64,000 bases of DNA from Haloplanus salinarum. Lineage in GTDB: Archaea > Halobacteriota > Halobacteria > Halobacteriales > Haloferacaceae. Positions 4,351 to 42,206 of the stretch are shown here, piece by piece. A program made the position numbers and the translations under genes. Under the pieces are notes generated by a model, which saw only the letters and a program-made list of their open reading frames with translations, searched no databases and was not told the origin of the DNA. The stretch covers positions 2,236,987 through 2,300,986 of the forward strand of contig NZ_CP101823.1 in the NCBI RefSeq assembly GCF_024498175.1. Reading direction: 5' to 3'. Each line of letters opens with the position of its first letter. Position 1 is the first letter of the stretch.

Positions 4351-4356
4351 TCTTTC

Positions 4357-25714: not shown

Positions 25715-25721
25715 GCGTGGG

Positions 25722-26765: not shown

Positions 26766-26837
26766 GCGACCGTCGCGCCGGCTAGGGGGCATCGTGCGGA
26801 GAAAGTATCATGACGGTACCACAACGAAACACGAATC

Positions 26838-27527: not shown

Positions 27528-27540
27528 TCGCCCGCCGACC

Positions 27541-28707
27541 ATGGACGAGAGCATCCAGCGGGACATCCTCCAGGACCGGTACGAGAAGTACCGCACGAAG
27601 GCGGACGAACTCAGATCACAGGGAGACGCCGAGGAGGCGGCGGCGTACTACGAGCGGTGTGCCGACGCGATGGCGGATCTGGCCGAGACCGAATCCAACG
27701 AGTCGCTGGCCAAGAAACGCCGGAACCTCGCGCAGAACCTCTCGACCGTCGCGGAGAAACTCCGGGAGTCGGGGACCGTCGAGGCGGACGTCGCGGACGG
27801 TCGGGACGGTGTCCCATCCGGCGACCGGGACGCGGCCGCCGACGCCGGGGAACCGACGGCGGACGCGGACCCGGACGCGGACGCGGACGCGGCGGCGGTC
27901 GCGGAGGCCAGCGAATACCTGGAGTCCCCGCCGGATCTCGACTTCGAGGACGTGGGGGGGATGCACGACCTGAAGCGGACGCTCCGGGACAAGGTGATCG
28001 ACCCGCTGGAGCGGTCGGAGCTGTACGCGGAGTACGATCTCGGCGTGGTCAACGGCGTCATGCTGTACGGCCCCCCGGGAACCGGGAAGACGCACATCAC
28101 GCGGGCGCTGGCGGGTAAACTCGGCTACAACTTCGTCGACGTCGAACCCAACGACATCACGAGTTCGCTGGTGGGCGAGGCGGCGGACAACGTCGCCGAA
28201 CTCTACGACGTCGCCCGCGACAACCAGCCCTGCCTGGTCTTCGTCGACGAGGTGGACGCGCTGATGCCGTCCCGCAGCGGCGGGTCACAGAAGACCCAGA
28301 GCGAGCGCCAGATGGTCAACCAGTTCCTCACGGAGTTGACCGAGTGTCGGGGCGAGGACGTCATCACGGTGACGGCGACCAACATCCCCGACGAGGTGGA
28401 CGGCGCGGCGACGAGCCGGTTCCAGGAGCGGATCGAGGTCCCGCCGCCGGACGCCGAGGCCCGCGAGGCCATCCTCCGGGTCCACCTCCGGGACCGGCCG
28501 GCGCTCCCGGACGAGATCGACTGGGATCGGATCCGGCGGCTGAGCGAGGGGTACTCGGGGCGCGACCTGGAGGTCGTCGCCGACGACGCCGCCCGCAGGG
28601 CGCTCCAGGAGGCGGTCGACGCCGACGAGATCCAGCATATCCGTCAGGAGCACGTCGAGACGGCACTCGAGGAGACCGAACCGAGCCTCGACCACTGGGA
28701 CGGCTAG
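27541..28707 (+). CDS. Vps4/katanin-clade AAA+ ATPase with N-terminal MIT-like domain
   Basis: Walker A GPPGTGKT, Walker B LVFVDEVDAL, SRFQERIEVPPPDAEAREAIL matches Vps4 RRFExRIYIPLPD; N-terminal three-helix EEAAAYYERCADAMADL MIT-like region; no PAN-type coiled-coil or HbYX. Confidence 0.8.
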   Translation: MDESIQRDILQDRYEKYRTKADELRSQGDAEEAAAYYERCADAMADLAETESNESLAKKRRNLAQNLSTVAEKLRESGTVEADVADGRDGVPSGDRDAAADAGEPTADADPDADADAAAVAEASEYLESPPDLDFEDVGGMHDLKRTLRDKVIDPLERSELYAEYDLGVVNGVMLYGPPGTGKTHITRALAGKLGYNFVDVEPNDITSSLVGEAADNVAELYDVARDNQPCLVFVDEVDALMPSRSGGSQKTQSERQMVNQFLTELTECRGEDVITVTATNIPDEVDGAATSRFQERIEVPPPDAEAREAILRVHLRDRPALPDEIDWDRIRRLSEGYSGRDLEVVADDAARRALQEAVDADEIQHIRQEHVETALEETEPSLDHWDG

Positions 28708-28776
28708 CCGGCGGGCGAATGCCGCGGGTCGACAGGCGGCACCTTTTTTGTGGGTAGTCGATCACGGCACAGTCAC

Positions 28777-29496
28777 ATGACAGAGAGACGGTGGGACACG
28801 TGGTGGTCGAACTACTTTCTCGCACTGGGCATCCTCTCGGTCGTCGTCGCCGGCTACCTAGGGTGGACGCTGAGCCAACAACCCCGGATGGGGGGGATGG
28901 GGTCGGTGATCGGGGTCGTACTGGCGCTCTTCGGCGTTACCGCCCTGCTGAACGTGGGGATCGGCCTCTGGATCAGGCGGGGGAGCGCGTACGCGTGGTA
29001 CGTGGGAATGGGGCTGCTCGCCCTGTCGGTGCTCGGATCGCTCGGCGGCGGCGGGGAGGCGATGGGCGGTGTCGCGGTTTCGGGGATCGGACTCGTCCTC
29101 GGCTACCTCGCGCGGGACGACCTCCTCGAATCCAAGACGGTGACCGAGGACGCGTCGTCGACCCCGGCCGAGCCGACGGGAGCGGGCGGCGGTCGGGACC
29201 CCGACCGCCGGCCGAACCGCGAGGGGGAGACGGCGCCGCGGGACCGACCCGCCTCGACGGCCGACGACGCGGCGGGGGCACGACGGAACGCGGGCTCGGC
29301 GTCCGGATCCCCCGAGCCGGCGGCAGAGACAGGAGCGGAGGCGGGGACGGCCCAGTCGATGGACGCGGAACGACCATCCTCGGCAGCGTCGCCGGAGTCC
29401 GGCAGCGAGGACGGGACGAAGTTCTGCCCGTACTGTGGCGAGGAGATTCCGGACCGGGCGGACCACTGTCCGTACTGTTCGTCGTCGATCCCGTAA
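28777..29496 (+). CDS. membrane protein with disordered linker and C-terminal double zinc ribbon
   Basis: TM helices in the first 120 aa; KFCPYCGEEIPDRADHCPYCSSSIP. Confidence 0.6.
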   Translation: MTERRWDTWWSNYFLALGILSVVVAGYLGWTLSQQPRMGGMGSVIGVVLALFGVTALLNVGIGLWIRRGSAYAWYVGMGLLALSVLGSLGGGGEAMGGVAVSGIGLVLGYLARDDLLESKTVTEDASSTPAEPTGAGGGRDPDRRPNREGETAPRDRPASTADDAAGARRNAGSASGSPEPAAETGAEAGTAQSMDAERPSSAASPESGSEDGTKFCPYCGEEIPDRADHCPYCSSSIP

Positions 29497-29965
29497 CCCG
29501 GGGCGACCGGACGCCCAACTCCGTCGAAATCCACCGGGGCAGCCCGCAACAGCCGCCCCGTGTGTTCGCGCTAGCGATGTGATTCGATCCTGATGATCGG
29601 GGTCCCGCTCCTGTCGGCACTGATCGTGGTTGTCGTCGAATCGGCCTCGAACCGGAGGGTGATTGAGATTGTGTTCTTGGAAGAGTCGGTCGAGCGCGTC
29701 AGTGTCGATGTCCTCGTTGATGAGCCACTTGAGGATATCCTCGTCGTGGGCCTTCGCAACCGCCGTGACGACGGCCGTGCTCAGCTCTTCGTCCGCGTCC
29801 GGCTCGTAGTAGAGATCCGCCGTGTCGTCCATACGTGCAATTCGGCACTCGACACCAAACCCGTCGGTACCAGTATATGCTGGCGTAGTGACCCGTCGGG
29901 TGGAGAACGGTGTCGACTGCAGTGGGTTTCGGCGGAGCGCGACTCCACGGAGGGTTACGGCCGCC

Positions 29966-30850
29966 TCAGAGGTCGGCGCCGCAACTGATACACGTGTTCC
30001 ACTCGGGGTCGACCTCCTCGCCGCAGTGTGTACAGAAACGGGTCGCGTCGGGCGACCCGCCACCCCCGTCGCCGGCCGCCGATCCGCCCCCCTGGGAGTG
30101 CGATTGCCGGTCGGTCCGGGCCGGCTCCCCGGCCCGTCGGTCGGCGGTCCCCTGACGGCGTTCCCGCTGGGCACGATCGCCCTGCGGCTGTGATCGGCCG
30201 CCCTGGCCCTGTGGCGGCCGGTCGGCCGCGGCTCGCTCGCCGCCGGCCCGACCGCCGTCGGCGCCGGCCTCGGGTTCGGCGGAGGCGGTGATGTCCGACC
30301 GGTTGACGACGCTGTCCTCGACCTGCGTGCGCTGATCCTTGACGGTCTTGCTCTGGTCGACGCGGGTCGTGCTCTGGTCGATGGTGTCGACGTTGGTGGT
30401 GCTTTGATCGACGTGAGTCTGCTGGTTCTTCCGGTCGACCATGTCGCCCTGCACGTTCGTCACCTGGTCGGGCCCCTTCTCGACTTCCTTTTTTGTTTCG
30501 AGGTACTCCTTGCCGGCCTTGGCGACGGTTTCCTTGGCCGCCTGTCGTTTCTTCTTCGCCATGATCGTGTAGTCGTACAGCCCGAGCAACATGACGACGA
30601 GGATGGCGAACGCGGAGGCGCCCAGCGCCGACCCGCTGAGGTTCCCGACCGCCAGCGCCAACCCGACGAGCAGGAGGATGATCGCCCCGATCCGCAGGAA
30701 GCCACTGAACTTCGAGAGGTTGTCCGGCGCGTCGATGTCCGGATGGTCCCCCGCGACCGCCGCCCCGTACAGTACGACCGACAGTGTTTGCGCGACTACC
30801 ATACTGCCAGCCTGCGAATCGACCGACTTTAATCTTGGCCCGAGCGACAT
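29966..30850 (-). CDS. membrane protein with STT-VD repeat module and C-terminal zinc ribbon (start uncertain)
   Basis: two TM helices; VDQSTTNVDTIDQSTTRVDQSKTVKDQRTQVEDSVVNRSD; FCTHCGEEVDPEWNTCISCGADL; ORF 29966..30967 trimmed to MSLGPRL. Confidence 0.55.
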   Translation of the reverse strand: MSLGPRLKSVDSQAGSMVVAQTLSVVLYGAAVAGDHPDIDAPDNLSKFSGFLRIGAIILLLVGLALAVGNLSGSALGASAFAILVVMLLGLYDYTIMAKKKRQAAKETVAKAGKEYLETKKEVEKGPDQVTNVQGDMVDRKNQQTHVDQSTTNVDTIDQSTTRVDQSKTVKDQRTQVEDSVVNRSDITASAEPEAGADGGRAGGERAAADRPPQGQGGRSQPQGDRAQRERRQGTADRRAGEPARTDRQSHSQGGGSAAGDGGGGSPDATRFCTHCGEEVDPEWNTCISCGADL

Positions 30851-31064
30851 GTTCGAATACAGGGAGGTATCGTCGACACCGTCGGCGCCCGGACCCCGAC
30901 CGGGCTTTCGTCGGGTGGCTGTCGGTGAGAGGCGACCGGACGGGACGGGCACGGGCGGACGGGGCAACCTTTATTCCCATCCTCGTATCATGTTTTCCGA
31001 TAACGAGGTTCTCGGGGCGTCCCCGGTGGGGGTGGGCGCGGCCGTGAGCCACGGGAGACAACCA

Positions 31065-32903
31065 ATGCCTTCGACATGCCCGAACTGCGACGGACGTGTG
31101 CCATCGGACGGCGACTTCTGTCCGAACTGCGGGGAGTCGCTGTCGACGAACTGTCCCGGCTGTGGGGAGTCGCTACCGATCGACGCCCAGTTCTGTGCCA
31201 ACTGCGGCCAGGACCTCACCAGCTCCACCGGCCAGCGGGGATCGGGGAACGCCGCGGGAGGCGGCAGTTGGCGACTGGGCGACGACGAGTTCGCCAAGCG
31301 CGTCGACGGCGCCGCCCTCGACGGCGACGGACTGCTCGCCACGCTCAGCCGGCGAAAGGACGTCGAAATCGAGGCCGGTAATCGGGCGCTCCTGCTCGAG
31401 AACGGGAAGCTCGTCGAGACGCTCGAGGCCGGCAAACACAAGCTCGACAGCCTCGGCAAGCGGATCCGAGAGCTCAGATCCAGCCACAACCTCACAGTCG
31501 TACTGGTCCAGGAGGGGCGGACCACCGTCGCCCGCTCGTTCGACGACATCCGGACGGCCAGCGACTACCTCGTCGACGTCACGGTCGAACTCGACGTGGG
31601 GATGCACGACCCACAGACGTTCTTCCGTTCGATGATGGCCGACCGGGACGTGCTGACGACCGGCACGTTCAACCAGTTGCTCGGGCGGGCGATCCGGAAC
31701 GCCCTGGAGGCGACCATCTCGGAGTACGACCACCAGGAACTCTACGGGAGCAAGGAGGTCAAGCGTCGCGTCGCTCGCGAAATCGAGGAGCAGTGTCGCT
31801 CGGTCCTCGAGAGCAACGGGCTCGAACTCGTCGAACTGGTCTCCTTCGACTACGACGACGACCGGGGCGAGATCCGTCAGGGCCGCAAGGACGTCGACAT
31901 CCGCGAGGAGAAAGAGGAGATCAAGGACCGCGAGAGCGAGCTGGACCGGCGGGGGCGCGAACGGCAGACCGAGGACAAGGTCCACGGGGAGAAACAGCGC
32001 GTCCGGAAGGAGTCCGCCGAGATGAGTGCCGACCACACGCTCGACAAACAGGAGGTCGAGCAACAGCAGGAGATCGACGACAAACGGCGCCGGCACGGCC
32101 ACAAGGCCGAACGGGAGGACGTCGAACACGAGGAGGACGTGCGGACCTACCGGACCGAATCCGAGGTCGAGCGCGAGGACATCCGCCACGAGCAGGAGAT
32201 GAAAGAGCGGGAGCAGGAACACGAACAGGACGTCTCCGAAATCGAGGATCTGGTCGACCTCAAGCGGAAGAAAGACGAGCAGAAACTCGACAAGCAGGAG
32301 CGCAAACAGGAGATGGAGATGCAGAAAGAGAGCCACGAGGTGGACGTCGAGAAGGAGCGCCTCGAGGCTCGCGACGACGTGGACGCCCAGACCCTCGCCA
32401 GCATGGAGGATACGGACGAGGAGATGATCGACCTGGCGAAGATGGACAAGGCGGAGAACCTGAACGCCGACCAGCTCGACTCGCTGGGCGCCCAGAAGAG
32501 CGACGAACTGGCGAAGGCCCGTCAGGAGGCAAACAGCGCCGAGAAGGAGCGCGAACGGGTCGAGGACCAGAAGCAGTTCCGCGAGGAGATGCAGGACATG
32601 ATGGAGGGATCGATGGATCGCATGGAGCGAACCACCGACAAGGCGATGGACAGCATGGGCGGCGCGGCGGAGGCGGCCGCCGAGGACACCTCGGACAACG
32701 TCATCGTCAGCGGCGAGGGCGGCGACTCGTCGGGCGGGGACACGACCATCGTCCAGGGCGGTCCCGGCGGGGGTGGCGACGGCACCACCGCCGAATCCGA
32801 CGGCGGAGCCGACGAGCCCGAGAAGATCATCGTCTGTCCGAGCTGTGGCTCCGAGGAACCGTACGCCAACGACTTCTGTATGGGGTGTGGACAGGAGTTC
32901 TGA
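31065..32903 (+). CDS. SPFH/band-7 (flotillin-like) protein flanked by N-terminal tandem zinc ribbons and a C-terminal zinc ribbon, with a long EA-rich coiled coil
   Basis: CPNCDGRV...FCPNCGESL..CPGCGESL...FCANCGQDL; SPFH-like core (KDVEIEAGNRALLLENGKLVETLEAGKHKLD...VVLVQEGRTTVARSFDDIRTASDYLVDVTVELDV...); C-terminus CPSCGSEEPYANDFCMGCGQEF. Confidence 0.7.
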   Translation: MPSTCPNCDGRVPSDGDFCPNCGESLSTNCPGCGESLPIDAQFCANCGQDLTSSTGQRGSGNAAGGGSWRLGDDEFAKRVDGAALDGDGLLATLSRRKDVEIEAGNRALLLENGKLVETLEAGKHKLDSLGKRIRELRSSHNLTVVLVQEGRTTVARSFDDIRTASDYLVDVTVELDVGMHDPQTFFRSMMADRDVLTTGTFNQLLGRAIRNALEATISEYDHQELYGSKEVKRRVAREIEEQCRSVLESNGLELVELVSFDYDDDRGEIRQGRKDVDIREEKEEIKDRESELDRRGRERQTEDKVHGEKQRVRKESAEMSADHTLDKQEVEQQQEIDDKRRRHGHKAEREDVEHEEDVRTYRTESEVEREDIRHEQEMKEREQEHEQDVSEIEDLVDLKRKKDEQKLDKQERKQEMEMQKESHEVDVEKERLEARDDVDAQTLASMEDTDEEMIDLAKMDKAENLNADQLDSLGAQKSDELAKARQEANSAEKERERVEDQKQFREEMQDMMEGSMDRMERTTDKAMDSMGGAAEAAAEDTSDNVIVSGEGGDSSGGDTTIVQGGPGGGGDGTTAESDGGADEPEKIIVCPSCGSEEPYANDFCMGCGQEF

Positions 32904-32909
32904 CCGGCG

Positions 32910-33065
32910 TCAGTCCTCGGTGATGAAGAAGGCGACCATCGTATCCTCCCAGCGGGAGAACTGCACGTCCGTCACGTCGTGGTGGTCGAGGTAGGCGTTG
33001 ATCTGGGACTCCATCTCCTCGATGCTCGTGGATTCGTACTGGAACTCCAGCACCTGCACTTGCAT
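32910..33065 (-). CDS. small acidic protein, 51 aa
   Basis: C-terminal part of artefactual ORF 32910..34943; MQVQVLEFQYESTSIEEMESQINAYLDHHDVTDVQFSRWEDTMVAFFITED. Confidence 0.3.
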   Translation of the reverse strand: MQVQVLEFQYESTSIEEMESQINAYLDHHDVTDVQFSRWEDTMVAFFITED

Positions 33066-33220
33066 GTCCGCCCGTCCGGACGAGCGGGGTATATGCCTTC
33101 GGGCCGGCGTCACACCGACGCCACGGCGGACGTTCCGTGACACAGGGTCACGACGGTCGTCGGGTGAAGCGTCACCGACGACGGGCCCCGGTTCGGCCAC
33201 CGGCCACGGCACGCGGGCGG

Positions 33221-35521
33221 TCACTCCCCGTCGTACAGGTCCGCGAGCGCGTCGCGCAGGTAGACGATGTCGTCGTAGCGGTCGGCCTTTTCCTTCGCCA
33301 GCGCCGTCAGTACCACGTCGTCGAGCGCGGCGGGGACGTCGGCCACCTCGCTGGGCGGCCTCGGTCGGTCGTCCAGTACCGCGCGCACGACTCTCGTGCG
33401 CTCGCCCTCGAACGGCGGCCGGCCGGTGAACAGCTCGTAGAACACCGCCCCCAGCTGGTAGACGTCGGTGAGGTCGTCGACCGACCCGTAGGACTCGTCG
33501 AACTGCTCCGGCGCGGCGTAGTGGGGCGACACCCCCTCGACGCTCGCCGAGTGATCGAGCAGGTGTTTCGACAGCCCCCAGTCGGCCACCTTCGGGACGT
33601 CCCAGGCCCCGTCGACGGACCGAAAGAGGACGTTCTCGGGTTTCAGATCGAGGTGGGCGACGCCGCGTCGGTGGGCGTGGCGCACGCCCTTCGTCACCGC
33701 GAGGGCCGTCCACAGCGACTGCTGGACGTCCATCGTCCCCGCCCGGTCGCCGAGGTGGCCGCCGTCCATGTACTCCATGGCGATCCACGGGAGGGGTTCG
33801 GCCCCGTAGTCGACGACGCCGACCACGTGGTCGTGGTCGTCGAGTTTGTCCCACGTTTCGGCCTCGGCCAGCATCCGCTCGACGGTGTCGGTGTGGAGCG
33901 TCCCCGAGAGGCGTGGCTTCTTGACGGCCAGCGTGACGGTGCCGTCCGGGGTCGGTGCCGTCGCCCGGACGACGTCGGCGTTCCCGCCGCTTCCGATGAT
34001 GCCCGCCTCCGTGAGCGCGTCGTACGCGACCGAGACGTCGGGTGCGCGCGGGATCTCCGTGGGCGGTCCCCCCGGCGGTCGGTTCCCGGTCGACGGCCCG
34101 TCCGCCGGCCGTTCGACGGGGTCGTCGCCGGGGGCCGGCGCGTCGGCCGCGGTGCCGAGCGAGACGTCCGCGAACCCATCGGTCGCCTCGTCGGGCGTCA
34201 CCGGGGTCGATCCCGCGTCGGGTGACGGTCCGGAGTCGGCGTCGGCCACGTCGCTCCGTTCGGATCGTGGCGACGGTGTGGACCCGGAGTCGTCCGCGGT
34301 ATCGGAGTGTCGGGACGGGGACGCGGAGCGACCGCGGCGCGGCGACGCGGGGCCGGGACCGTCGAACGCGGACGTCGTCCCGTCCGATCCGCCGGACCCG
34401 TCGCCGGAGCGGCGCAGCCACCACCAGCCACCGCCCAGTCCGGCGGCGAGCAGGCCCGCGGCCGGCAGGACGACCCCGCCGTCGCCGCCCGCCGCGTCGT
34501 TTTCGGGGTCGCCCCCGTCCGACGAGTCGCCACCCGCCGGGGCCGCCGTGGACGTCGCGGTGGGGGTCGGCGTCGCGGTGGGCGTCGGGGTCGTGGGCTC
34601 GCCGGCGACCGCAAGCAGGAAGTCGTCGGCCGCCGTCACGTAGACGGTCCCGTCGGCCACCGCCGGGGAGGACGTGATGTCGTTCGAGTGGCCGTCGTAC
34701 GCCCACAGCCGGTCGCCCGTCTCGGCGTCGAACCCGTACAGCGTGTCGCCATCCGCGAGGTAGACCGCGCCGTCGGCCACGGCTGGCGAGGAGCGCCGGT
34801 CGCCGGGGTCGGCCGACCATCGCTCCTGGCCCGACGCCGCGTCCAATGCGTACAACGCCGTCCCGGCCGCGAAAACGGTCCCGTCGGCTACCGCCGGCGA
34901 TGCGAACCCCCAAGCGTCGTCGGCGTCGGCCGTGAACCGCCACCGCTCGGAGCCGTCGTCGGCCGACAGCGCGTAGACGGCCCCGTCGGTGCTGCCGACG
35001 TAGACGGTGCCGTCGACGACTGCCGGCGAGGAACGCACCTCCCCGTCAGTCTCGAACGTCCACGCCGGCCGTCCCGAGTCGGTCGGGAGAGCGTAGACGC
35101 TCCCGTCGTTGCTCCCGACGTAGACGGTGCCGTCGACGACCGCCGGCGAGGAGAAGACCTTCCCGCCCGTCCGGTACCGCCACCGTTCGGACCCGTCGGC
35201 GACGGGGAGTGCACGGACGTAGCGGTCGTTGCTCCCGACGTAGACGGTTCCGTCGACCACCGCGGGCGACGACGTCGGGCGGTTGTCGTCGGCAAACACC
35301 TGGCCGCTCGGGCCCGCCGAGGCCCACGTTCGGTCGACGTCGGCGACCGGCCCGGAGACGGCCGGCGCGTGTCCGGTGTTCGCGGCGTCGCGGTGGTGTT
35401 GGGGCCACGACTCCTCCGAATCGGACTGGGCCGCCGCGAGTCCGGTCGCCCCGTCGACGGCCGAGTATCCGGCCGCGGCGCCCGCGGCCGCCCGCAGGAA
35501 CTCCCGTCTCCTCGGCGCCAT
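33221..35521 (-). CDS. transmembrane receptor Ser/Thr protein kinase with extracellular PQQ-repeat beta-propeller
   Basis: Tat-like RRREFLRAAAGAAAG signal; repeated AVVDGTVYVGSNDGSVYAL PQQ blades; Pro/Thr linker; one TM; C-terminal Hanks kinase motifs HLDLKPENVL, VADWGLSK, YAAPEQ. Confidence 0.8.
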   Translation of the reverse strand: MAPRRREFLRAAAGAAAGYSAVDGATGLAAAQSDSEESWPQHHRDAANTGHAPAVSGPVADVDRTWASAGPSGQVFADDNRPTSSPAVVDGTVYVGSNDRYVRALPVADGSERWRYRTGGKVFSSPAVVDGTVYVGSNDGSVYALPTDSGRPAWTFETDGEVRSSPAVVDGTVYVGSTDGAVYALSADDGSERWRFTADADDAWGFASPAVADGTVFAAGTALYALDAASGQERWSADPGDRRSSPAVADGAVYLADGDTLYGFDAETGDRLWAYDGHSNDITSSPAVADGTVYVTAADDFLLAVAGEPTTPTPTATPTPTATSTAAPAGGDSSDGGDPENDAAGGDGGVVLPAAGLLAAGLGGGWWWLRRSGDGSGGSDGTTSAFDGPGPASPRRGRSASPSRHSDTADDSGSTPSPRSERSDVADADSGPSPDAGSTPVTPDEATDGFADVSLGTAADAPAPGDDPVERPADGPSTGNRPPGGPPTEIPRAPDVSVAYDALTEAGIIGSGGNADVVRATAPTPDGTVTLAVKKPRLSGTLHTDTVERMLAEAETWDKLDDHDHVVGVVDYGAEPLPWIAMEYMDGGHLGDRAGTMDVQQSLWTALAVTKGVRHAHRRGVAHLDLKPENVLFRSVDGAWDVPKVADWGLSKHLLDHSASVEGVSPHYAAPEQFDESYGSVDDLTDVYQLGAVFYELFTGRPPFEGERTRVVRAVLDDRPRPPSEVADVPAALDDVVLTALAKEKADRYDDIVYLRDALADLYDGE

Positions 35522-35666
35522 ACGGTACGAACGTGCTCTAGGACCCTCATAACGGTTTTCCCGCGGTGTGACGGAGTCGATCGTCCGAACGGGGTGGACG
35601 GGGTCGAGGGCCGACCCCCCCGGGCCGGCCCCAGATTTATGTATCGGGTGGAATATCTCGGATCGT

Positions 35667-37220
35667 ATGAGTTGTCAGGCACCGGGGATGCTCGGGGACG
35701 ACGGTCCGGTCGACGATCGGGTCGCCAGGACCGAAGTGTTGGCTCGGGCGTTCGCCGACGCGGCAGGGGAGTTTTTCGAACGGCGGAAACAGTACGAGGA
35801 CGCCATCGAGGAGGCCGAATCCGAGAAAGATCGGATGAAAATGATCGGAATCGGAGGAGTCGGCGTCGGGGTCCTCCTCCTCGTGGTCGGCGTCGCCGGC
35901 GGGAACGGGGCGTCGCTTCCGCTGATCGGGATCGGACTGCTGGTCGCCGCTGCGGGCGGCGCGTACGCGTACACACAGTACCAGGCGGCCGAGGAACGGA
36001 TCGAGGAGAACCGCCGGAACCTCCGGGAGAACGAACCCGACGGGGAGGTGTCGTTCGTCTCGCAGGTGACGGTCCCGTTCTATCTGGTCCCGTACCAGGA
36101 GCGGTTCATGATCTTCGACGGCCTCGATCAGGCCCCCGAAACGCGACTGGAGCTCGCGAACATCGACGGCGACGCACTGACGAGCGAGGCCGAGCGGTAC
36201 GGGGAGATGATCGACACCTTCGAGGAGACGCTCGGCGGTGAGTCGGTCGTCTCGCCGGAGTTCGCCGAGCAGTTCGCGCCGGACGTGGCGGAACACGGAC
36301 GGCTCGAACGGCCGTTGCTCGATCGGATCGACGCGATGACCGACGTCGCGTCGTCCGTCTCCCACGACGTGGTCGACGTGAACGTCCACGCGAACGACGC
36401 GAAAAGCGAGAGCATCCGGACCTTCGCCGAGCGCGGGGCGTTCCGGGAGGGGAGCGACCTGCCGAGCGTGCCGACCCGGCGGTCGGCGGCCGAGAGCGAG
36501 GCGGCGGTCGACGAGATCCGCGGCGTCGAACAGGAGGCAGTGAGCGGCGACCTGCTCTCGCAGGCCCGCGAACAGCGGACGTTCGTCAACGAGACGGCGA
36601 CCGAGTTCGCCGAGCGACTCCAGACGAACGAGGAGGCGGTGAACGACCACTACGGCGCCTACGCCGAGTCGGCGGAGACGGCCGTCCACCGCCACGTCTG
36701 TGCGGAGTGTCTCGCGGAACGCATCGAGGACATCGACGGTCGCCTCGATCTGGTGTCCGAGATCCTCAGTTCGGAGACGGGGAGCCTGGGTGCGGCGCTG
36801 AGCGACCGCGACCTCGACGAGGGGTACGACGGCAAGTTCACCGAGAAGATCCGCAACGACATCCAGCGGGAGATTCCCGAACTCTCGGAGACGCTCAAGC
36901 GGGCGTACAACACCCTGCCGGAGCTGGGCGCCGGCGGCGGACACTGTGAGGTCCACGGCGAGGTGCAGACGACGCCGGTCCCCGACGGCGGCGCCATCTT
37001 CGGCGAAACCTGGCGGAGCCTCTACTACGCGTTCCGCGAACCGATCATGGAGAGCGCCGACGACCTCGAACGCGACGCCGAGGAGGTCAGACAGAACAAA
37101 GAGCAGAAGATGATCGACATGACACAGTACGAACAGATCAAGGAGCGGGCCGAGCGCGACTACCACCAGGTCAGGTCGGATTACGAGGCCGCGAAGACGG
37201 TCCAACGGAGGCTCCGCTAA
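35667..37220 (+). CDS. membrane-anchored coiled-coil protein, first gene of a six-gene operon
   Basis: TM segment IGIGGVGVGVLLLVVGVAG...LIGIGLLVAAAGGAY; TATA-like tttatg ~27 nt upstream of ATG 35667. Confidence 0.6.
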   Translation: MSCQAPGMLGDDGPVDDRVARTEVLARAFADAAGEFFERRKQYEDAIEEAESEKDRMKMIGIGGVGVGVLLLVVGVAGGNGASLPLIGIGLLVAAAGGAYAYTQYQAAEERIEENRRNLRENEPDGEVSFVSQVTVPFYLVPYQERFMIFDGLDQAPETRLELANIDGDALTSEAERYGEMIDTFEETLGGESVVSPEFAEQFAPDVAEHGRLERPLLDRIDAMTDVASSVSHDVVDVNVHANDAKSESIRTFAERGAFREGSDLPSVPTRRSAAESEAAVDEIRGVEQEAVSGDLLSQAREQRTFVNETATEFAERLQTNEEAVNDHYGAYAESAETAVHRHVCAECLAERIEDIDGRLDLVSEILSSETGSLGAALSDRDLDEGYDGKFTEKIRNDIQREIPELSETLKRAYNTLPELGAGGGHCEVHGEVQTTPVPDGGAIFGETWRSLYYAFREPIMESADDLERDAEEVRQNKEQKMIDMTQYEQIKERAERDYHQVRSDYEAAKTVQRRLR

Positions 37221-38209
37221 TGGCCGAGCGCGACAGGGTTCGGATCACGAATCCGGGCGACGTCGGGGACGCCGCGGCCAGGGGCATCAAGAGTCAGATC
37301 TCCAAGCTCAACAGTTCGATCGAACAGACAAACCGGGAGATTCAGAACCTCGAGAAGCGCATCGGGGAACTGGAGCAGAGTTTCGCGCGGATCGAACAGA
37401 CGAAGGCAGCGGCCCGGGCGGAGGCGATGGAGGACCTGGTCGACGATCTCAAAGAACAGGTCGACGAGAAGCGCGCGGAGTTCCAGCGGCGCCGACGCGA
37501 CGTGCTGGAGGATTACCGCGACAGCATCCGGCGGCTGAAGGACCGGTTCGTCGGGACCATCTCCGGCAACCGCGAGCAGTTCGATCAGGTGGAGTCTGAA
37601 CTCGCCGATATCGAGGAGCGTCGAGGGGAGACGGCGGCGGCCGCGGGCCGGTTGAGCGACGGGGCAGCCCGGGAGTACGATCGGCGTCTCGACGCGGTGA
37701 TCGAGAGCCGGAACGGCTTCCTGTCGGCGATCAACGACTTCCTCGACGACCGCGAGACGACGGCGGAGACCATCGACTCGCTCCAGACGCCGCTGCCCGG
37801 CGTCTCGGGAGTGACGACCGTCGAGGTGCCGTTCTGGGTGGTCGGCATCGAGCGCGACGGCCGGGAGGAGGTCCGGGTGTTGCCGGTACTGGCACGCGGG
37901 AGCGGCGACGCGTCGGCGACGCGCGCCCAGCCGTACGTGAACTACCTCCGGGAGCATCCGACCCACAGCTACGGCGACATGGCCGACGCGGTGTCGGAGT
38001 ACGTCCGGCGAGACGAGGTCCGGGACCGGCTGGCCAAACAGGACGGCGAGTTCGCCGACCCGGACGTCCTCCGGCGGCGCGACGAGACGCTCGATCGGTT
38101 CGTCGACGCGCTGGCGGAGTACCAGCTGGACGGAGACGACCGATCCGGGGAGGCGTCCGGGAGGGCGACCGACGCGGCGGAGCAAACGGAGGTGGCGGCG
38201 GATGACTGA
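37220..38209 (+). CDS. coiled-coil protein (operon gene 2)
   Basis: start ATG overlaps stop TAA of gene 1; N-terminal heptad-rich region. Confidence 0.6.
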   Translation: MAERDRVRITNPGDVGDAAARGIKSQISKLNSSIEQTNREIQNLEKRIGELEQSFARIEQTKAAARAEAMEDLVDDLKEQVDEKRAEFQRRRRDVLEDYRDSIRRLKDRFVGTISGNREQFDQVESELADIEERRGETAAAAGRLSDGAAREYDRRLDAVIESRNGFLSAINDFLDDRETTAETIDSLQTPLPGVSGVTTVEVPFWVVGIERDGREEVRVLPVLARGSGDASATRAQPYVNYLREHPTHSYGDMADAVSEYVRRDEVRDRLAKQDGEFADPDVLRRRDETLDRFVDALAEYQLDGDDRSGEASGRATDAAEQTEVAADD

Positions 38210-39353
38210 GGAGGCGAAGGGCGCGATCACCTCGGAGAAGATCGAGACGGATAACACGAACTTCGCGACGGTCAGAGCCGACCAGACCTGCGAGGAGGTG
38301 CTCGTCCCGCGGGAGAACGCGTACCGACAGCTCAACTGGCAGATCACCTTCGAGAAGGGCTCGGTCTACAAGCCACAGGAGGACGTGGGCATCTACGCCG
38401 ACGAGGTCGACTGCAAGTACGGCGTCCAGATCCGGGGGGACGTGTTCGGCCGGAGCGCGGTCGGGCTCGAACACGGCGGCGCGGCCCACTCCGGCGCCGA
38501 CCGTGCGGACGGGGAGACGCCGGTCGTCGGTGCGCGGGTCATCGGGTCGGTGCTCTCGGATGGACAGGTCGACATCACGGAACCCGCGTCGCGGATGGAC
38601 GACTGGGAGCCACGCCCGGTCCGGGTGTACGGCGACGTGGTCGGCGATCACGTGACGGTCGAGGCGCCGACGGTCGTCTACGGGACGGTGAGCGCCGAGA
38701 CGACCCTGCGGGCGAACGCCCCGCTGGTCGTGGTCGGCGACGTGCGCTCGGAGGGGATCATCGAGGCGTCGGACCTGTTCGCGTTCTCGGTGAGCGCTCG
38801 GGACGACGTGACCCTCGGCCACAACGTCGCGGTGATCAACCCGGAGCTCCGCTCGGACGAGGGGAGCCTGACCATCGCGGACCGGGTGGGCGTCCTCACC
38901 CCCGACCTCCTGGAGCGGATTCACGAGGGGAACGACGTCGACGCGGTCGGGCCGTGGGTGTTCGACGTCGACGCCGTCTGGGAGGGGTCGGTCCTGGTGC
39001 CCCCCGACGTCTCGGATCACGGGCAGGGCCAGGTCACCAGCCGCGCCTGGCGGACCGTCGAGGAACCGACGGAGTCGCGGTCGAAGGCGCGCCGGCTCTT
39101 CGAGTCGATGATCGAGCGGACGCGCAAACGGCCGCCGGACTTAGAGGAGTTCCGGTACGCCGGCGTCGGGTCGGCCGCCGGCGGGACGGAGATCACCGTC
39201 GAGGGCGACATGGTCGTCGGGGAACAGGAGAAACGCGTCGACGAGAGCACGACCGCGGTCGACCGGAGCACGGAGGTCCACGACGAGAGCACGACCGTCG
39301 AGGACAGCGTCGTCAACCGGTCTGACCTGAGCGACGGCGACGGGGAGGACTGA
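38202..39353 (+). CDS. bactofilin-like beta-helix protein with C-terminal STT-VD repeat tail (operon gene 3)
   Basis: recurrent VxGDV motifs (GVQIRGDVFG, GARVIGSVLSDGQVDI, VRVYGDVVGDHVTV, LVVVGDVRSEGIIE) with ~17-18 aa period; tail VVGEQEKRVDESTTAVDRSTEVHDESTTVEDSVVNRSD; 8-nt overlap with gene 2. Confidence 0.5.
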   Translation: MTEEAKGAITSEKIETDNTNFATVRADQTCEEVLVPRENAYRQLNWQITFEKGSVYKPQEDVGIYADEVDCKYGVQIRGDVFGRSAVGLEHGGAAHSGADRADGETPVVGARVIGSVLSDGQVDITEPASRMDDWEPRPVRVYGDVVGDHVTVEAPTVVYGTVSAETTLRANAPLVVVGDVRSEGIIEASDLFAFSVSARDDVTLGHNVAVINPELRSDEGSLTIADRVGVLTPDLLERIHEGNDVDAVGPWVFDVDAVWEGSVLVPPDVSDHGQGQVTSRAWRTVEEPTESRSKARRLFESMIERTRKRPPDLEEFRYAGVGSAAGGTEITVEGDMVVGEQEKRVDESTTAVDRSTEVHDESTTVEDSVVNRSDLSDGDGED

Positions 39354-39355
39354 CC

Positions 39356-39946
39356 GTGCCCTACTGTGATCGACACAACGAGGTGTACAGCGGCCCGGAA
39401 TGTCCGGCCTGCGCGGACGAGGGCGGGGACACGGCACCCGCCGAGGACGGGCCGGGCGCGGGCGGGGACGCCGGCGCGGCCGGGGGCATCGACGACCTGG
39501 TCGACGAGGCCGTCTCGGCCGCGACGGACGCCGTCGACGACGCGGACGACGTGGTCGTCGGGGAGCAGTCGAAACGCGTCGACAGGAGCACAACCGTCGT
39601 CGACGACAGCACCGAGGTCCACGACCGGAGCACGACCGTCTCGGACAGCGTCGTCAGCGACTCGGAGATCGACGCCGGCGACGGCGCCGGCGAGGGGACG
39701 ACCGTCGTCGACGACAGCGTCGTCAGCGACTCCACGGTCGGCGGCGGGGGGGAGACCGAAGTCGAGGACAGCGTCCTCGACGACGCGACCGTCGGGGACG
39801 AACACGTCGAGTCGGCGGTCGGCGACGTCGGCGGTGGGTCGGACCCCGATCCGGCGACCGACGACGACGCGGCGTTCTGCATCTACTGTGGCACCGAGAT
39901 TCCGGCGACCGCGGGGTTCTGTCCGGCCTGCGGGGAGGAACAGTGA
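39356..39946 (+). CDS. double-zinc-ribbon protein with STT-VD repeat module (operon gene 4)
   Basis: N-terminus CDRHNEVYSGPECPAC; VVVGEQSKRVDRSTTVVDDSTEVHDRSTTVSDSVVSDS; C-terminus FCIYCGTEIPATAGFCPACGEEQ; 2-nt gap after gene 3. Confidence 0.6.
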   Translation: MPYCDRHNEVYSGPECPACADEGGDTAPAEDGPGAGGDAGAAGGIDDLVDEAVSAATDAVDDADDVVVGEQSKRVDRSTTVVDDSTEVHDRSTTVSDSVVSDSEIDAGDGAGEGTTVVDDSVVSDSTVGGGGETEVEDSVLDDATVGDEHVESAVGDVGGGSDPDPATDDDAAFCIYCGTEIPATAGFCPACGEEQ

Positions 39947-39980
39947 GGGACGTCCACAAGACACTTACGCGGCCTCGGAG

Positions 39981-40811
39981 ATGGCGAACCAACGGACGCG
40001 ACGGAGGGAGGTCCGCATGAACGACATCGTCAGCGAACTCCGGACACAGGCACTCGAATCGACGTACGGCGAAGACCGCCGGGACGCCCTAGAGCGACTG
40101 GCCGACCGGTACGACGAGGCCGGCGAGGCCGAGCGTCGGGAGATCCGACAGACGCTCGCCGACGTGGCGCGGGACGCCACCCACAAGGAGGAGCGCGAAC
40201 TGGCGCGCGAGCGCCTCGACGACCTCTACGAACGCGACTCGGCGGCCGCGGGGACGGTCGTCGGCACCTACTGCTGGCTGGCCACCGAGGCGGACTACTC
40301 GGGGGAGCGCGAGGCCGCCCTCGACCGCCTGCGGCGGATCGGCCGGTCGGGGGTGTCGGCCGACCTCCGGGACCGGATCGCCGACACCTTCGAGACGGTG
40401 ACGGCGGAGGCGACCTACAGCGCCGAACGCGAACAGGCTCGTCGAGGGCTATCGGAACTGCCCGACGGTGGCGACGCGGACGCGGACGCGGGCGGTGGCG
40501 GTGGCGGGGCGGGCGCGTCCGAGAGCGGCGACGCCTACCTCGCCGTCTCGCTCACCGAACACCTCGTGGCCGCCCGGACCGAGGGCGCCGACGCGTGTCT
40601 CGGCCGCGCGGAGGAACTCCACGACTTCGTCGACCGCCATCCCGTCGACGACGACGCCTACGGGGAGGTCCGCGACGACCTGTCGTCGCTGGTCGACCAG
40701 TTGAGCGTCGTCGCCGACGGGCAGTCGTCGCTCGGCGAGGAGCGCCGGACGCAGGTCGAACGGGTGGCCGATCGGACCAAGCGACTCTACCTCCGAAGCG
40801 GCGACGACTGA
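39981..40811 (+). CDS. alpha-helical HEAT-like repeat protein (operon gene 5; alternative start 40017)
   Basis: three ~40-aa repeats YGEDRRDALERLADRY / YSGEREAALDRLRRIG / YSAEREQARRGLSEL. Confidence 0.5.
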   Translation: MANQRTRRREVRMNDIVSELRTQALESTYGEDRRDALERLADRYDEAGEAERREIRQTLADVARDATHKEERELARERLDDLYERDSAAAGTVVGTYCWLATEADYSGEREAALDRLRRIGRSGVSADLRDRIADTFETVTAEATYSAEREQARRGLSELPDGGDADADAGGGGGGAGASESGDAYLAVSLTEHLVAARTEGADACLGRAEELHDFVDRHPVDDDAYGEVRDDLSSLVDQLSVVADGQSSLGEERRTQVERVADRTKRLYLRSGDD

Positions 40812-40853: not shown

Positions 40854-42206
40854 ATGTCGAACGGTTCGGATGAGGGCGTCAGCGTCGGCGTGCTGTCGCT
40901 CCACAACAGCAAGGAGACGAAGGCGATTCTGAACGCGGTCGAGGACCTCGGCCACGATCCGGTGTGGCTCCGACAGGAGAACACGACCGTGACCATCGAG
41001 GACAGCACGGTCACGGTCGAACCGGACGTCGACGTGGTCGCGAACCGGCTTCTCCTCTCGACGACGGGCGATCCCGCGGAGTTGCTGGGGCTGGCGACGA
41101 CGTTCGAGCGGATCCGGCCGATGCTGAACGAGCCGGACGCGGTGTTGACCGCGATCCACAAGTTCGCGACGGCGGCGACGCTCGCCGACTGGAACGTACA
41201 GGTGCCCGACGCCTTCCTGGCGCTGTCGAACGAGGGACTCAACGAGGGGCGGGAACGGTTCGGCGACGTGGCCGTCTACAAGACCGCCATCGGCACCCAC
41301 GGCGGCGGGACCTGGAAGGTCGACCTGACGGAGCCGGTCAATCCGCGGGTGGGCAACCGCCAGGCGTTCCTCCAGGAACTCGTGGAGCGCGACGAGAGCG
41401 AACACCGCGACCTGCGGGTGTACGTCGTCGACGACGAGATCGTCGGCGCGATGTACCGTTACGCGCCGGAGGGTGACTGGCGGACCAACGTCGCCCTGGG
41501 CGGGGCCGTGGCCGACGCCAGCGACGACCTCCCGGAGACGGCCGCGGAGACGGCGCTGTACACGACCGAGGTGATGGGACTCGACTACGCCGGCGTCGAC
41601 CTCATCGAGGGCGAGGACGGCTGGTTCGTCCTCGAGATCAATCCCACGGCGGGGTTCAAGGGTCTGTACGAGGCGACGGGGGTCAGTCCGGCGCCCCACA
41701 TCGCGAAACTGGCCATCGAGCGCGCCGGGGGGACGGTCGACGAGGAGCGCGTCCGACACCTCGCGGCGACGCTCGACGACTCGACGCCGGCGTGCAAGCC
41801 ACGGACCCTCCCGCCGGAACAGGAGGATCTCCCGCTCATCGGCTACATCGAGGAGGTGATCGTCAGCGGGACGAGCGGGTCGACGCAGGTGATGGCCAAA
41901 TCCGACACCGGGGCGACGCGGACCAGCATCGACACGGGGTTGGCCGCCGACATCGGCGCGGGACCGATCAAGAGCATGACGCGGGTCCGATCGGGGAGCG
42001 TCAAGTCGGGGAAGGCCCGGCCGGTCGTCGACCTGGTCGTCGGTATCGGGGGCACCCAACACACCGTCACGGCGAGCGTCGAGGATCGGAGCCACATGGA
42101 CTACCCCGTGTTGCTCGGCCGGGACGTGCTGGAGCGGTACCGCGTCGACGTGCGACGCCGCGCCGACGGCGAGGAGCGCGACGGGAGCGAGGTGCTGGAG
42201 GAGTAG
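40854..42206 (+). CDS. RimK-family ATP-grasp ligase fused to C-terminal retropepsin-like aspartic protease domain
   Basis: ATP-grasp motifs (VAVYKTAIGTHGGGTWKV, GLDYAGVDLIEGEDGWFVLEINPTAG); C-terminus VMAKSDTGATRTSID...VLLGRDVLERYRVDV matches the retropepsin-like domain of RimK-associated proteases. Confidence 0.7.
   Translation: MSNGSDEGVSVGVLSLHNSKETKAILNAVEDLGHDPVWLRQENTTVTIEDSTVTVEPDVDVVANRLLLSTTGDPAELLGLATTFERIRPMLNEPDAVLTAIHKFATAATLADWNVQVPDAFLALSNEGLNEGRERFGDVAVYKTAIGTHGGGTWKVDLTEPVNPRVGNRQAFLQELVERDESEHRDLRVYVVDDEIVGAMYRYAPEGDWRTNVALGGAVADASDDLPETAAETALYTTEVMGLDYAGVDLIEGEDGWFVLEINPTAGFKGLYEATGVSPAPHIAKLAIERAGGTVDEERVRHLAATLDDSTPACKPRTLPPEQEDLPLIGYIEEVIVSGTSGSTQVMAKSDTGATRTSIDTGLAADIGAGPIKSMTRVRSGSVKSGKARPVVDLVVGIGGTQHTVTASVEDRSHMDYPVLLGRDVLERYRVDVRRRADGEERDGSEVLEE

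Follow-up and report, generated by a model that had tools for sequence, protein, structure and literature searches.

Why should a membrane protein, a beta-helix protein and a zinc-finger protein, encoded close together in a haloarchaeal genome, carry the same short repeat? The question is raised by a stretch of the Haloplanus salinarum genome, 64,000 nucleotides long and hereafter called the window, in which the original prediction had placed a common module in proteins A, B and C. All three open reading frames exist and each carries the module, in the following arrangement:

29966-30850, minus strand: protein A, 294 aa, start at 30850 (open reading frame and translation)
30749-30802, 30638-30709 and 30560-30628, minus strand: three hydrophobic segments of A
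30476-30559, minus strand: strongly basic, juxtamembrane helix of A
30287-30451, minus strand: module copy in A, 55 aa, residues 134-188 (B-tail HMM, hmmsearch)
29969-30040, minus strand: C-terminal zinc ribbon of A (Zn_Ribbon_1 E=1e-7)
38202-39353, plus strand: protein B, 383 aa, with a beta-helix core and helical subdomain at ~38229-39131
39201-39332, plus strand: module copy in B, 44 aa, residues 334-377, C-terminal tail
39356-39946, plus strand: protein C, 196 aa, starting 2 nt past the B stop codon
39359-39412, plus strand: N-terminal CxxH...CPxC zinc knuckle of C
39488-39538, plus strand: helix of C
39542-39673, plus strand: module copy in C, 44 aa, residues 63-106, equal in length to the B copy
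39698-39826, plus strand: two extra DSVVxDS-type units of C
39872-39943, plus strand: C-terminal zinc ribbon of C

The module opens with a GDxVxGxQxK cap, continues as three to seven [VI]-D-x-S-T-T-x heptads with an aspartate every 7 residues, and closes with EDSVVNRSDI. The copy in A reads QGDMVDRKNQQTH, followed by five or six heptads and EDSVVNRSDIT, while that in B reads EGDMVVGEQEKR VDESTTA VDRSTEV HDESTTV EDSVVNR SDLS; relative to other genera, the same 8 residues are absent from the B and C copies. A six-frame motif scan found DSVV.[RD]S together with VD.ST[TE] only in genes A, B and C within the window, and an HMM built from B tails alone matched C at E ~1e-12 and A at ~1e-11 (i-E 1.2e-11 for the A copy in hmmsearch), an agreement that greatly exceeds chance. 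When the A, B and C families are aligned, the D, S, T and V/I columns and the DSV triplet are each conserved in 15-17 of 17 sequences. Within the B family, G335, D336, G340, Q342, D347, S349, T351, D361 and T364 are invariant and E367, D368, S369 and V370 nearly so, and the acidic tails adjoining the module show no conservation at all. Judged by these columns, many of which are invariant across families and genera, the module is not generic low complexity; the original prediction had itself raised a mere S/T/D composition as the objection, and the positional conservation proved strong.

The module is also scarce. A profile search of 1.84e9 representative proteins at E<=1e-3 retrieved only 37 clusters, three of them weak and spurious, and the remaining matches, inspected or listed, fit the carrier types described below in size and architecture. 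Against the PDB the profile had 0 matches at E<=10, the module sequences gave only noise against Pfam at E<=10 (Sec20 0.02, LbH_EIF2B 0.13), and neither B nor C matched any NCBIfam model. By these comparisons, the module is real, rare and previously undescribed, and is specific to a few lineages of haloarchaea. It resembles SHOCT by analogy of kind, the latter being, in the accessible part of its description, a short module at the ends of many unrelated architectures; zinc ribbons and SPFH proteins come up in that part as well. However, there is no sequence relationship (nothing in the Pfam scan of the module), and SHOCT is bacterial and widespread, whereas the module studied here consists of heptads and is limited to a few haloarchaeal lineages.

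The proteins that carry the module differ in nearly everything placed before it. In A, the hydrophobic segments are followed by the basic helix, the module, a disordered Gly/Arg/Gln-rich linker and the zinc ribbon, a layout repeated in orthologues from Haloplanus litoreus (L003) and from metagenomes (P0061, P0063, P0067). In C the module stands between the zinc knuckle and the zinc ribbon, and in B it forms the C-terminal tail behind a disordered linker that follows the core. The ribbons of A and C score 31.8 and 31.7 bits with Zn_Ribbon_1 (PF13240 / PF12773), both above the cutoff of 25; the zinc-ribbon cysteines are invariant in the C family, and both zinc modules of C are modelled by AlphaFold with pLDDT ~80. 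Other carriers place module and zinc ribbon behind a beta-rich N-domain (D), behind HEAT (E) or, in P0018, behind a beta-helix, as a B-C fusion with a single module; P0018 comes from one 2.2-kb metagenome contig, in which assembly collapse is possible. A C-terminal zinc ribbon accompanies the module in almost every architecture. Its location appears to be cytoplasmic in all three proteins, because in A it sits between the basic juxtamembrane helix and the zinc ribbon, and B and C are without signal peptides. This makes glycosylation, one of the modifications first proposed for it, unlikely.

B had been described as bactofilin-like. It is a beta-helix protein, yet when set beside bactofilins and the halofilins HalA/HalB (PF04519; Curtis et al. 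2024, PMC11459167) it gave no significant match to the bactofilin profile, and its identity as a bactofilin (PF04519 / DUF583) is not demonstrable. No Pfam family matched B at E<=0.1, and the B-family profile reached Thermus bactofilin in the PDB at only E=0.044 (15.9 bits).

B and C are the last genes of an operon whose first two members are the following:

35568-37220, plus strand: p550, membrane protein (homology to other loci begins near 35667)
37220-38209, plus strand: cc329, coiled coil, upstream of B in the same operon

Along p550-cc329-B-C, stops and starts overlap or abut as far as C, and p550 and cc329 are kept in front of B in all loci. Among loci with the full B gene and downstream sequence, a C homologue lies immediately 3' of B in 15 distinct genomes and in the window. 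The sole exception is L021, where B has no C downstream, its tail is degenerate and the EDSVVNRSDI end motif is lost. As the module is present in both B and C in all genomes, across at least 5 genera, the two genes are, to judge from these loci, an ancient pair.

The two modules also match in length. Measured cap to cap, they are equal in 15 of 16 genomes and fall into four length classes (42/42 in Haloplanus, 48/48 with one pair at 48/49, 50/50 and 66/66), a match that depends on only three independent indel events; in the 66/66 pair, B and C alike carry two additional heptads and a 2-residue stutter, identically placed. The module of A, at 55 aa against 42 in B and C of the same genome, shows no such match and therefore falls outside the register argument. 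Continuous homogenisation cannot explain the agreement, because B and C modules of one genome share only ~55-75% of their amino acids; it is simpler to assume selection for equal length.

At the DNA level, the copies in the window are 78% identical between B and C, 77% between A and B and 69% between A and C (the latter two over the last 31 codons), in agreement with the 75-80% originally estimated by eye. B and C resemble each other more when both come from one genome than when they come from different genomes (58 vs 53% aa, 66 vs 60% nt; permutation p ~4e-4), and in the window identical residues use the same codon in 26/30 cases between B and C, against 16.9 expected (p ~2e-4), and in 18/20 between A and B, against 11.4 expected. 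The excess in B and C suggests gene conversion between module copies, specific to this lineage; in loci with GC3 of 0.57, only 9/27 and 9/28 codons are identical and the module is still kept. Of the two origins first put forward, module shuffling is borne out by the several architectures, whereas recent duplication is contradicted by the presence of the module in both B and C in those genera and by an identity between paralogous modules (53-58% aa) that is about that between orthologues. The high DNA similarity in the window is better explained by strong protein constraint together with lineage-specific gene conversion.

The operon and gene A are embedded in a larger cluster, which in the window comprises:

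23789-25714, minus strand: coiled-coil protein, 641 aa, cluster core
25722-26243, minus strand: 173-aa protein, cluster core
26838-27527, plus strand: candidate ESCRT-III, 229 aa, helical, basic/acidic, cluster core
27541-28707, plus strand: candidate Vps4/CdvC, single-domain AAA ATPase, helical N-domain, cluster core (Pfam AAA 8e-33)
28750-29496, plus strand: membrane protein ending in a zinc ribbon, module absent, present in L003
31065-32903, plus strand: double zinc ribbon (DZR), SPFH/Band 7, long charged coiled coil and C-terminal zinc ribbon (start 31065 set by homologue alignment)
32910-33065, minus strand: conserved 51-aa protein (MQVQVLEFQYESTSIEEMES...)
33221-35521, minus strand: receptor Ser/Thr kinase with a Tat-type signal, PQQ beta-propeller, TM segment and cytoplasmic Pkinase
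40017-40811, plus strand: 264-aa helical-repeat protein, conserved in the cluster

The p550-cc329-B-C operon travels with the genes for the AAA ATPase, the ESCRT-III-like protein, the DZR-SPFH protein, the 51-aa protein and the 264-aa protein in every long-flank locus bar L011, the gene order being rearranged. The DZR-SPFH gene (Pfam DZR 1e-13, Band_7 1.6e-5) is conserved in the loci and transcribed divergently from A, the 51-aa protein has relatives at 12 distinct loci (35-98% identity, tblastn), and the 264-aa protein gave no Pfam HEAT match. A conserved helical protein of 214-229 aa, basic and then acidic, lies directly upstream of the AAA ATPase in all loci. Neither single-sequence nor profile searches of Pfam, NCBIfam and the PDB matched it to Snf7, and it is a candidate ESCRT-III assigned from the literature (arCOG07402) and synteny. 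The ATPase matches the CdvC equivalog model at E=6e-45 over profile positions 89-355 of 370; at 154 bits this falls short of the 650-bit cutoff and does not exceed the matches to Cdc48, PAN and FtsH models.

A similar setting is described for the euryarchaeal and haloarchaeal ESCRT neighbourhoods of the 'Main' and 'Halo_FHA' clades in the accessible part of Makarova et al. 2024 (mBio, PMC10936438). In the window, a ~225-aa gene adjoins a single-domain AAA ATPase, a ~175-aa protein comes before a ~640-aa coiled-coil protein, and there are membrane Ser/Thr kinases, in agreement with a set that also includes arCOG03682. In that part, the gene pair, sizes and order given for arCOG07402/arCOG01307/arCOG09748/arCOG08177 match the window, Haloplanus natans WP_049937825/826 is given as an adjacent ESCRT-III/Vps4 pair, and the Meth_adaptin type features an SPFH protein with a coiled coil and a zinc ribbon. 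The window genes at 23789-25714 and 25722-26243 correspond in size, order and conservation to the arCOG09748 (~650 aa, C-terminal wH) and arCOG08177 (~175 aa) types. The accessible main text of the same study contains no beta-helix protein, p550-cc329-B-C operon or heptad module, and the words 'bactofilin' and 'beta-helix' do not occur in it. An ESCRT-like function of the cluster is presumed.

AlphaFold monomer models of B and C leave the module at low confidence and unstructured, the flanking domains being confident. Segments that fold upon binding typically look like this in models. In ESCRT and Cdv systems, machine components are docked by short, otherwise disordered segments, as in MIM-MIT recruitment or when a CdvA peptide completes the winged helix of CdvB. 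Those peptide motifs are single short helices or strands, whereas the module forms length-matched repeat arrays of 42-66 residues.

Self-association and phosphorylation of the module, both raised at the outset, are possible; the co-variation in length of B and C favours association, and their length match makes a pairing or docking tag, perhaps regulated by phosphorylation, the preferred reading of the module. We tentatively propose, as a reading that may well need revision, that it is a discrete protein-protein association element, and that the tail of B forms an in-register pair with the module of the same length in C, the zinc-finger protein encoded immediately downstream. Such physical pairing would give B in trans the cassette of module and zinc ribbon that A here, and D, E and the B-C fusion elsewhere, hold in cis, and the membrane protein A (D or E in other genomes) could join the same assembly through its module. 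The assembly would form part of the cluster with the candidate Vps4, the candidate ESCRT-III, the zinc-ribbon SPFH scaffold and the PQQ-sensor kinases, presumably a membrane-remodelling or membrane-organising machine. The highly acidic composition, with ~2 hydrophobic residues per 7, is unlike that usual for a stable beta interface and counts against pairing, as does the fact that gene conversion could copy indels between B and C without functional need.

It is conceivable, if unlikely, that the modules do not bind one another and instead dock as multivalent [VI]DxST arrays along one periodic partner, such as an oligomeric SPFH ring, an ESCRT-III-type filament, cc329 or a B polymer, the equal lengths of B and C then reflecting a common 'ruler'. 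This would suit the disorder in monomers, the invariant D/S/T at regular 7-residue spacing, the five different 'head' domains that bear the same module and the encoding of all carriers beside oligomer-forming proteins (SPFH, coiled coils), and within-genome co-variation would be equally expected. However, A differs in length in the same genome (55 vs 42 aa), cc329 does not vary in size with the module (345 aa in the 66-residue class, and 343 and 356 aa in two cases of the 48-residue class), and no candidate partner has a matching repeat.

The receptor Ser/Thr kinase, which the original prediction correctly placed between two carriers (Pfam PQQ_2 8.5e-38, Pkinase 1.8e-30), points to another reading that we consider improbable, namely that the Ser/Thr heptads are primarily a multi-site substrate of PQQ-sensor kinases, and of PP2C where present, recognised by FHA-type readers; such a switch could coexist with either binding model as a regulator. 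Similar kinases lie within the cluster in L004 (two copies), L011, L012 and L018, and in L004 a PP2C phosphatase directly follows the D-type carrier. The N-domain profile of D-type carriers has a single PDB match, 3gqs (E=0.039), which we take to be an FHA domain, but no Pfam FHA match. In the module alignment, S27, T29 and T42 are conserved in 15-17/17 and one T column alternates with E, but other S/T columns are replaced freely by R, V or K (S->R 7/17, T->V 5/17), and the best-conserved T has D at +4, as against +3 in the classic pTxxD FHA motif. According to the accessible part of Makarova et al. 2024 (PMC10936438), euryarchaeal and haloarchaeal ESCRT loci typically contain kinases, phosphatases and FHA proteins. 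The window, however, is without a PP2C or D-type gene, and the length matching of B and C would be left unexplained.

A third alternative, which we regard as quite improbable, is that the heptads form a small beta-roll or solenoid-like domain comparable with the Ca-dependent RTX nonapeptide rolls, whose folding would require multimolar KCl or Mg/Ca and which would hold head domains and zinc ribbons rigidly apart. RTX nonapeptide beta-roll, hexapeptide and pentapeptide folds combine a short period with a conserved Asp and stay disordered in the absence of a cofactor or partner. The module shares with them a short period with Asp at a fixed repeat position, but its period is 7 rather than 9, 6 or 5, and it has neither a Gly-rich turn nor Pfam or PDB similarity. 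Regular D spacing and defined N- and C-caps suit a domain rather than a linker, AlphaFold (no ions, shallow alignment) may miss such folds, and the extra DSVV units of C are weakly and non-significantly like left-handed beta-helix repeats (E=0.13). On the other hand, 7 residues are too short for a solenoid turn, 3-7 repeats would make very few coils, the module profile resembles no solved structure in the PDB, and the model would account neither for the B-C length co-variation nor for the end motif being lost where C is missing.

It is highly improbable that the module is an acidic Ser/Thr-rich linker of low complexity kept similar by gene conversion, or that the DNA repeat is what functions: the identical-codon excess in the window and the GC-rich genome would agree with this, but cross-genus protein conservation largely refutes it, with a protein pattern kept where the DNA is not (the GC3 0.57 loci), columns invariant across genera, adjoining acidic tails not conserved at all, and only 37 clusters worldwide that fit the profile.

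Carried to its full extent, pairing in register would make the module a length-coded 'zipper' linking a beta-helical, bactofilin-like scaffold and zinc-ribbon adaptors, a membrane anchor among them, to an archaeal ESCRT-III/Vps4-SPFH machine that a periplasmic-sensor Ser/Thr kinase controls, a wider proposal that is doubtful as a whole. If true, it would represent an unrecognised accessory layer of euryarchaeal ESCRT systems and a new way for partner proteins to recognise each other, by repeat register.

Three proteins of the window, which comes from a GC-rich haloarchaeon, share a heptad module and are here named A, B and C; the original prediction had named these open reading frames as carriers, and all three are real and contain it.

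Proteins and module copies in the window
29966-30850, minus strand: protein A, 294 aa from the homologue-supported Met
38202-39353: protein B, 383 aa
39356-39946: protein C, 196 aa
30287-30451: module copy in A, 55 aa
39201-39332: module copy in B
39542-39673: module copy in C

A six-frame scan of the 64 kb found DSVV.[RD]S and VD.ST[TE] together in A, B and C only. The anatomy of the module was derived from an alignment of 17 copies belonging to families A, B and C: it starts with G-D-[VI]-V-x-G-x-Q-x-K, the named residues being present in 15-17 of the 17 copies, continues through a stretch of variable sequence into heptads [VI]-D-x-S-T-T-x, whose Asp occupies alignment columns 25, 32, 39, 46 and 53 and thus recurs every seven residues, and ends with V-E-D-S-V-V-N-R-S-D-I-G, with D46, S47 and V48 in every copy. 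The acidic tails which follow the module in B homologues are not alignable. An HMM built from the B tails alone matches C (i-E ~1e-12) and A (i-E ~1e-11) and therefore recognises a position-specific pattern, not composition; the repeat is thus positionally conserved, and the generic low-complexity reading that would have refuted the original prediction does not apply. Two other readings of the heptads were rejected: a coiled coil, as the hydrophobic residues fall on adjacent g/a positions and not on a/d, and a MIDAS-like DxSxS site, the resemblance of "DxSTT" being coincidental since the Rossmann-fold context is absent. Protein B, earlier called bactofilin-like, is not a demonstrable bactofilin; its nearest homologues occur in Haloplanus spp. 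(81-84% identity).

The module is rare. A 54-position profile, based on an alignment of window sequences and homologous proteins, was searched exhaustively against 1.84 billion cluster representatives, and matched 37 proteins at E<=1e-3, of which 22 reach E<=1e-10. Three weak matches are unrelated repeats, while the remaining ones, inspected or listed, have sizes and architectures fitting five carrier types, two of which (D and E) come from other genomes. Nothing in Pfam, in NCBIfam or among the sequences of the PDB matches the module, its short alignment likewise retrieved nothing in a word-indexed protein search, and protein B had no match in plasmids. Pattern scans yielded only 5 loci in genomes and 8 in metagenomes, so the family census is incomplete.

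Architectures of module carriers
Type A: three TM segments, basic helix, module, disordered linker, zinc ribbon
Type B: beta-helix, then module
Type C: CxxH..CPxC zinc knuckle, helix, module, extra DSVV units, zinc ribbon
Type D: beta-rich N-domain of ~130 aa, short module with repeated DSVVNRS units, zinc knuckle, zinc ribbon
Type E: HEAT repeats, module, zinc ribbon
P0009 and P0034 (B homologues): beta-helix, module, then helix-hairpin-helix (HhH) domain
P0018 (B homologue): beta-helix, single module, DSVV unit, zinc ribbon

The general layout is "head domain - module - zinc ribbon", and the proposed check for co-occurrence with zinc ribbons gave a positive answer, since ribbons accompany the module in nearly every architecture. 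A second small zinc module, [YF]C-x2-H-x10-11-C-P-x-C (CHCC ligands), is common to C, where it lies at the N-terminus (39359-39412), and to most D-type carriers (P0072, P0073, P0077 and the gene at 410-1198 of locus L005), where it lies between the module and the zinc ribbon.

Protein B is encoded by the third gene of an operon, p550 - cc329 - B - C, in which a membrane-protein gene and a coiled-coil gene precede B, and stops and starts overlap or abut. B has this place in every related locus with a full B gene and downstream sequence, amounting to 15 distinct genomes besides the window, from Haloplanus, Halosimplex, Salarchaeum, Salinarchaeum, Haloarculaceae genomes and MAGs, and metagenome contigs. 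The p550 protein (35568-37220), for which there is no family assignment, carries a membrane hairpin at its N-terminus as well as conserved clusters of Cys and His, HRHVCAECL and GGGHCEVHGEV, which may bind metal. Wherever the flanks are long enough, genes of a wider cluster occur within 10 kb of the operon, in several gene orders; of these, the flank of locus L011 has only a kinase and the 51-aa gene.

Neighbours of the operon
Single-domain AAA ATPase, with a helical protein of 214-229 aa before it
Double-zinc-ribbon SPFH/Band 7 protein
Helical-repeat protein of ~264 aa, with no match to Pfam HEAT
Coiled-coil protein of ~640 aa, with a protein of ~175 aa before it
PQQ-sensor Ser/Thr kinases (often)
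32910-33065, minus strand: 51-aa ORF MQVQVLEFQYESTSIEEMESQINAYLDHHDVTDVQFSRWEDTMVAFFITED, present in 12 distinct related loci at 35-98% identity, usually just 5' of p550 on the opposite strand, and without a family match

In the window, positions 23789-40811 form one conserved haloarchaeal cluster, comprising the 641-aa coiled-coil protein, a 173-aa protein, a candidate ESCRT-III protein, the AAA ATPase, a TM and Zn-ribbon protein, A, the DZR-SPFH protein, the 51-aa protein, the PQQ kinase, p550, cc329, B, C and the 264-aa helical-repeat protein. The same set recurs, rearranged in order, in Halosimplex, Salarchaeum, Salinarchaeum and Haloarculaceae loci. The receptor kinase reported to lie between two carriers is indeed there (33221-35521, minus strand), with a PQQ propeller, a TM segment and a Pkinase domain. 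Just 3' of the cluster, the gene at 40854-42206 encodes a fusion of a RimK-type ATP-grasp domain with a C-terminal domain of the retropepsin-like / Zn_protease kind.

This cluster appears to be a gene neighbourhood of the ESCRT kind, catalogued in Euryarchaeota only recently (Makarova et al. 2024, PMC10936438). That catalogue describes euryarchaeal and haloarchaeal neighbourhoods with arCOG07402 ESCRT-III, arCOG01307 Vps4, arCOG09748 and arCOG08177, together with membrane kinases, phosphatases and FHA proteins, and an adjacent ESCRT-III/Vps4 pair in Haloplanus natans; the gene content of the present cluster matches these neighbourhoods, and the main text of the catalogue makes no mention of a beta-helix protein, the p550-cc329-B-C operon or the module (Makarova et al. 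2024, PMC10936438). The AAA ATPase was confirmed by search, its match to the CdvC model (E=6e-45) being below cutoff and no better than those to the Cdc48 or PAN models. No Snf7 homology of the 229-aa protein was found in Pfam, NCBIfam or PDB, and its label as candidate ESCRT-III comes from literature and synteny. Haloarchaea divide with FtsZ.

Elsewhere in the window, the stretch at ~4000-14500 has a GC content of 0.49-0.56, against ~0.68 in the rest. It encodes a type IIG restriction-modification enzyme of the Eco57I/MmeI type (1422 aa, 5600-9868) along with several ORFs that match no family, and is therefore probably an acquired island. A 1026-aa protein (15334-18414, minus strand) ends in a PGF-CTERM archaeal surface-anchor motif, and the haloarchaeal domain DUF7115 is strongly matched (E=2e-53) at 19985-21148. 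The window contains no tRNA genes.

The DNA similarity estimated by eye between the module copies is borne out by alignment, in which B and C are 78% identical; comparison of the last 31 codons gives 77% for A-B and 69% for A-C. The recent duplication proposed on that basis does not hold, as the module is found in B as well as in C in every genus, and the two are about as divergent from each other (53-58% aa identity) as C orthologues are among themselves (54%), which makes the duplication old. B and C are nonetheless more similar within than between genomes (58 vs 53% aa, 66 vs 60% nt), an excess with a permutation p of ~4e-4, to be read with the caveat that the genomes are related. Codon identity across all genomes is confounded by genome GC3 (0.65 within vs 0.54 between genomes), and the informative test of gene conversion is only the window-specific one, against local codon usage. 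Here the same codon is used at identical residues in 26/30 cases for B-C, where 16.9 are expected (p ~2e-4), in 18/20 for A-B (11.4 expected) and in 15/17 for A-C (9.6 expected), which points to homogenisation at the DNA level, that is gene conversion among the module copies, in the Haloplanus lineage. Low-GC3 genomes, however, retain the module without any codon-identity excess (9/27, 9/28), so that selection at the protein level is the general cause of the similarity.

The most informative result of the analysis is the co-variation in module length between B and C of the same genome, measured from the cap GD to the end S-x-[IVL].

Module lengths in B/C (residues)
42/42: three Haloplanus-type genomes
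48/48 and 48/49: two metagenome lineages
50/50: ten genomes
66/66: one locus, L019

The match is exact in 15 of the 16 genomes and extends over four length classes, which imply three independent indel events. In L019, two extra heptads and a two-residue "xD" stutter occupy the same site in both B and C, and the 16-residue insertion matches possible donors at 33-37/48 nt in every direction, which does not tell independent duplications from conversion. Frequent conversion would give near-identical copies and rare conversion would leave unmatched pairs, while sequence identity inside each pair is only about two thirds; the simpler reading is that equal length is kept by selection, with occasional conversion perhaps serving as one route. 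The A module has no such length match to B and C of its genome. The module-bearing C is present in every locus examined for the operon except L021 (2501-3715; B homologue P0032), the sole one without C downstream, where B is followed by a gene of opposite orientation; its B tail is degenerate at the end (...GEERTVTRSDA) and has lost the EDSVVNRSDI motif. P0018 resembles a fusion of B and C that has a single module, the product to be expected of recombination between copies. It comes from a single 2.2-kb contig and may be an assembly artefact.

The best-supported reading is that the module would be an association element which folds on binding. The B tail would pair in register with the C module, so that B gains in trans the "module + zinc ribbon" cassette which A, D, E and the fusion hold in cis, and A would supply a membrane anchor through the same module. 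A close rival is that the modules make no mutual contact and lie along a common periodic partner, for instance a coiled coil, a filament of the ESCRT-III type or an SPFH ring. Phosphorylation of the module, proposed from the start, is plausible as a regulatory layer: kinases are found within the cluster, a PP2C phosphatase comes directly after a D-type carrier in locus L004 (12624-14133), a D-type gene adjoins a 996-aa PQQ kinase in L018 (10001-13845), and the D N-domain weakly matches 3gqs of the PDB (E=0.039), which we take to be an FHA domain. However, several Ser/Thr columns freely become Arg, Val or Lys, the B/C length matching is left unexplained, and the D-type N-domain, which is beta-rich and possibly FHA-like, has no FHA match in Pfam. 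The classic pTxxD FHA-binding motif was set aside, since Asp stands at +4 from the Thr that is conserved best, and the +3 spacing is found only with the less conserved Thr; the window has neither a D-type gene nor a PP2C. Less likely readings are a cation-dependent fold that the module adopts by itself, and a linker without function. Glycosylation, also proposed for the Ser/Thr-rich repeat, is disfavoured by topology, as A has 7 Lys/Arg in the 17 residues after its last TM segment, followed by the module and a zinc ribbon, and B and C have no signal peptides, from which we infer that the module is cytoplasmic.

The module is undescribed and narrow in distribution, relates two adjacent genes by repeat register, and appears to be an accessory interaction module of the ESCRT-type cluster, probably holding the operon proteins and the membrane anchor together. 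The ESCRT-type neighbourhood is thereby extended by a conserved operon of four genes (for a membrane protein, a coiled coil, a beta-helix protein and a zinc-finger protein) as well as by the membrane anchor A, and the matched B/C lengths in four classes provide a simple, falsifiable handle. If the pairing is true, the module would serve as a heterodimerisation tag that is compact and tolerates salt, and as an entry point to how an ESCRT-III/AAA ATPase pair, an SPFH ring and a beta-helical scaffold cooperate at an archaeal membrane.
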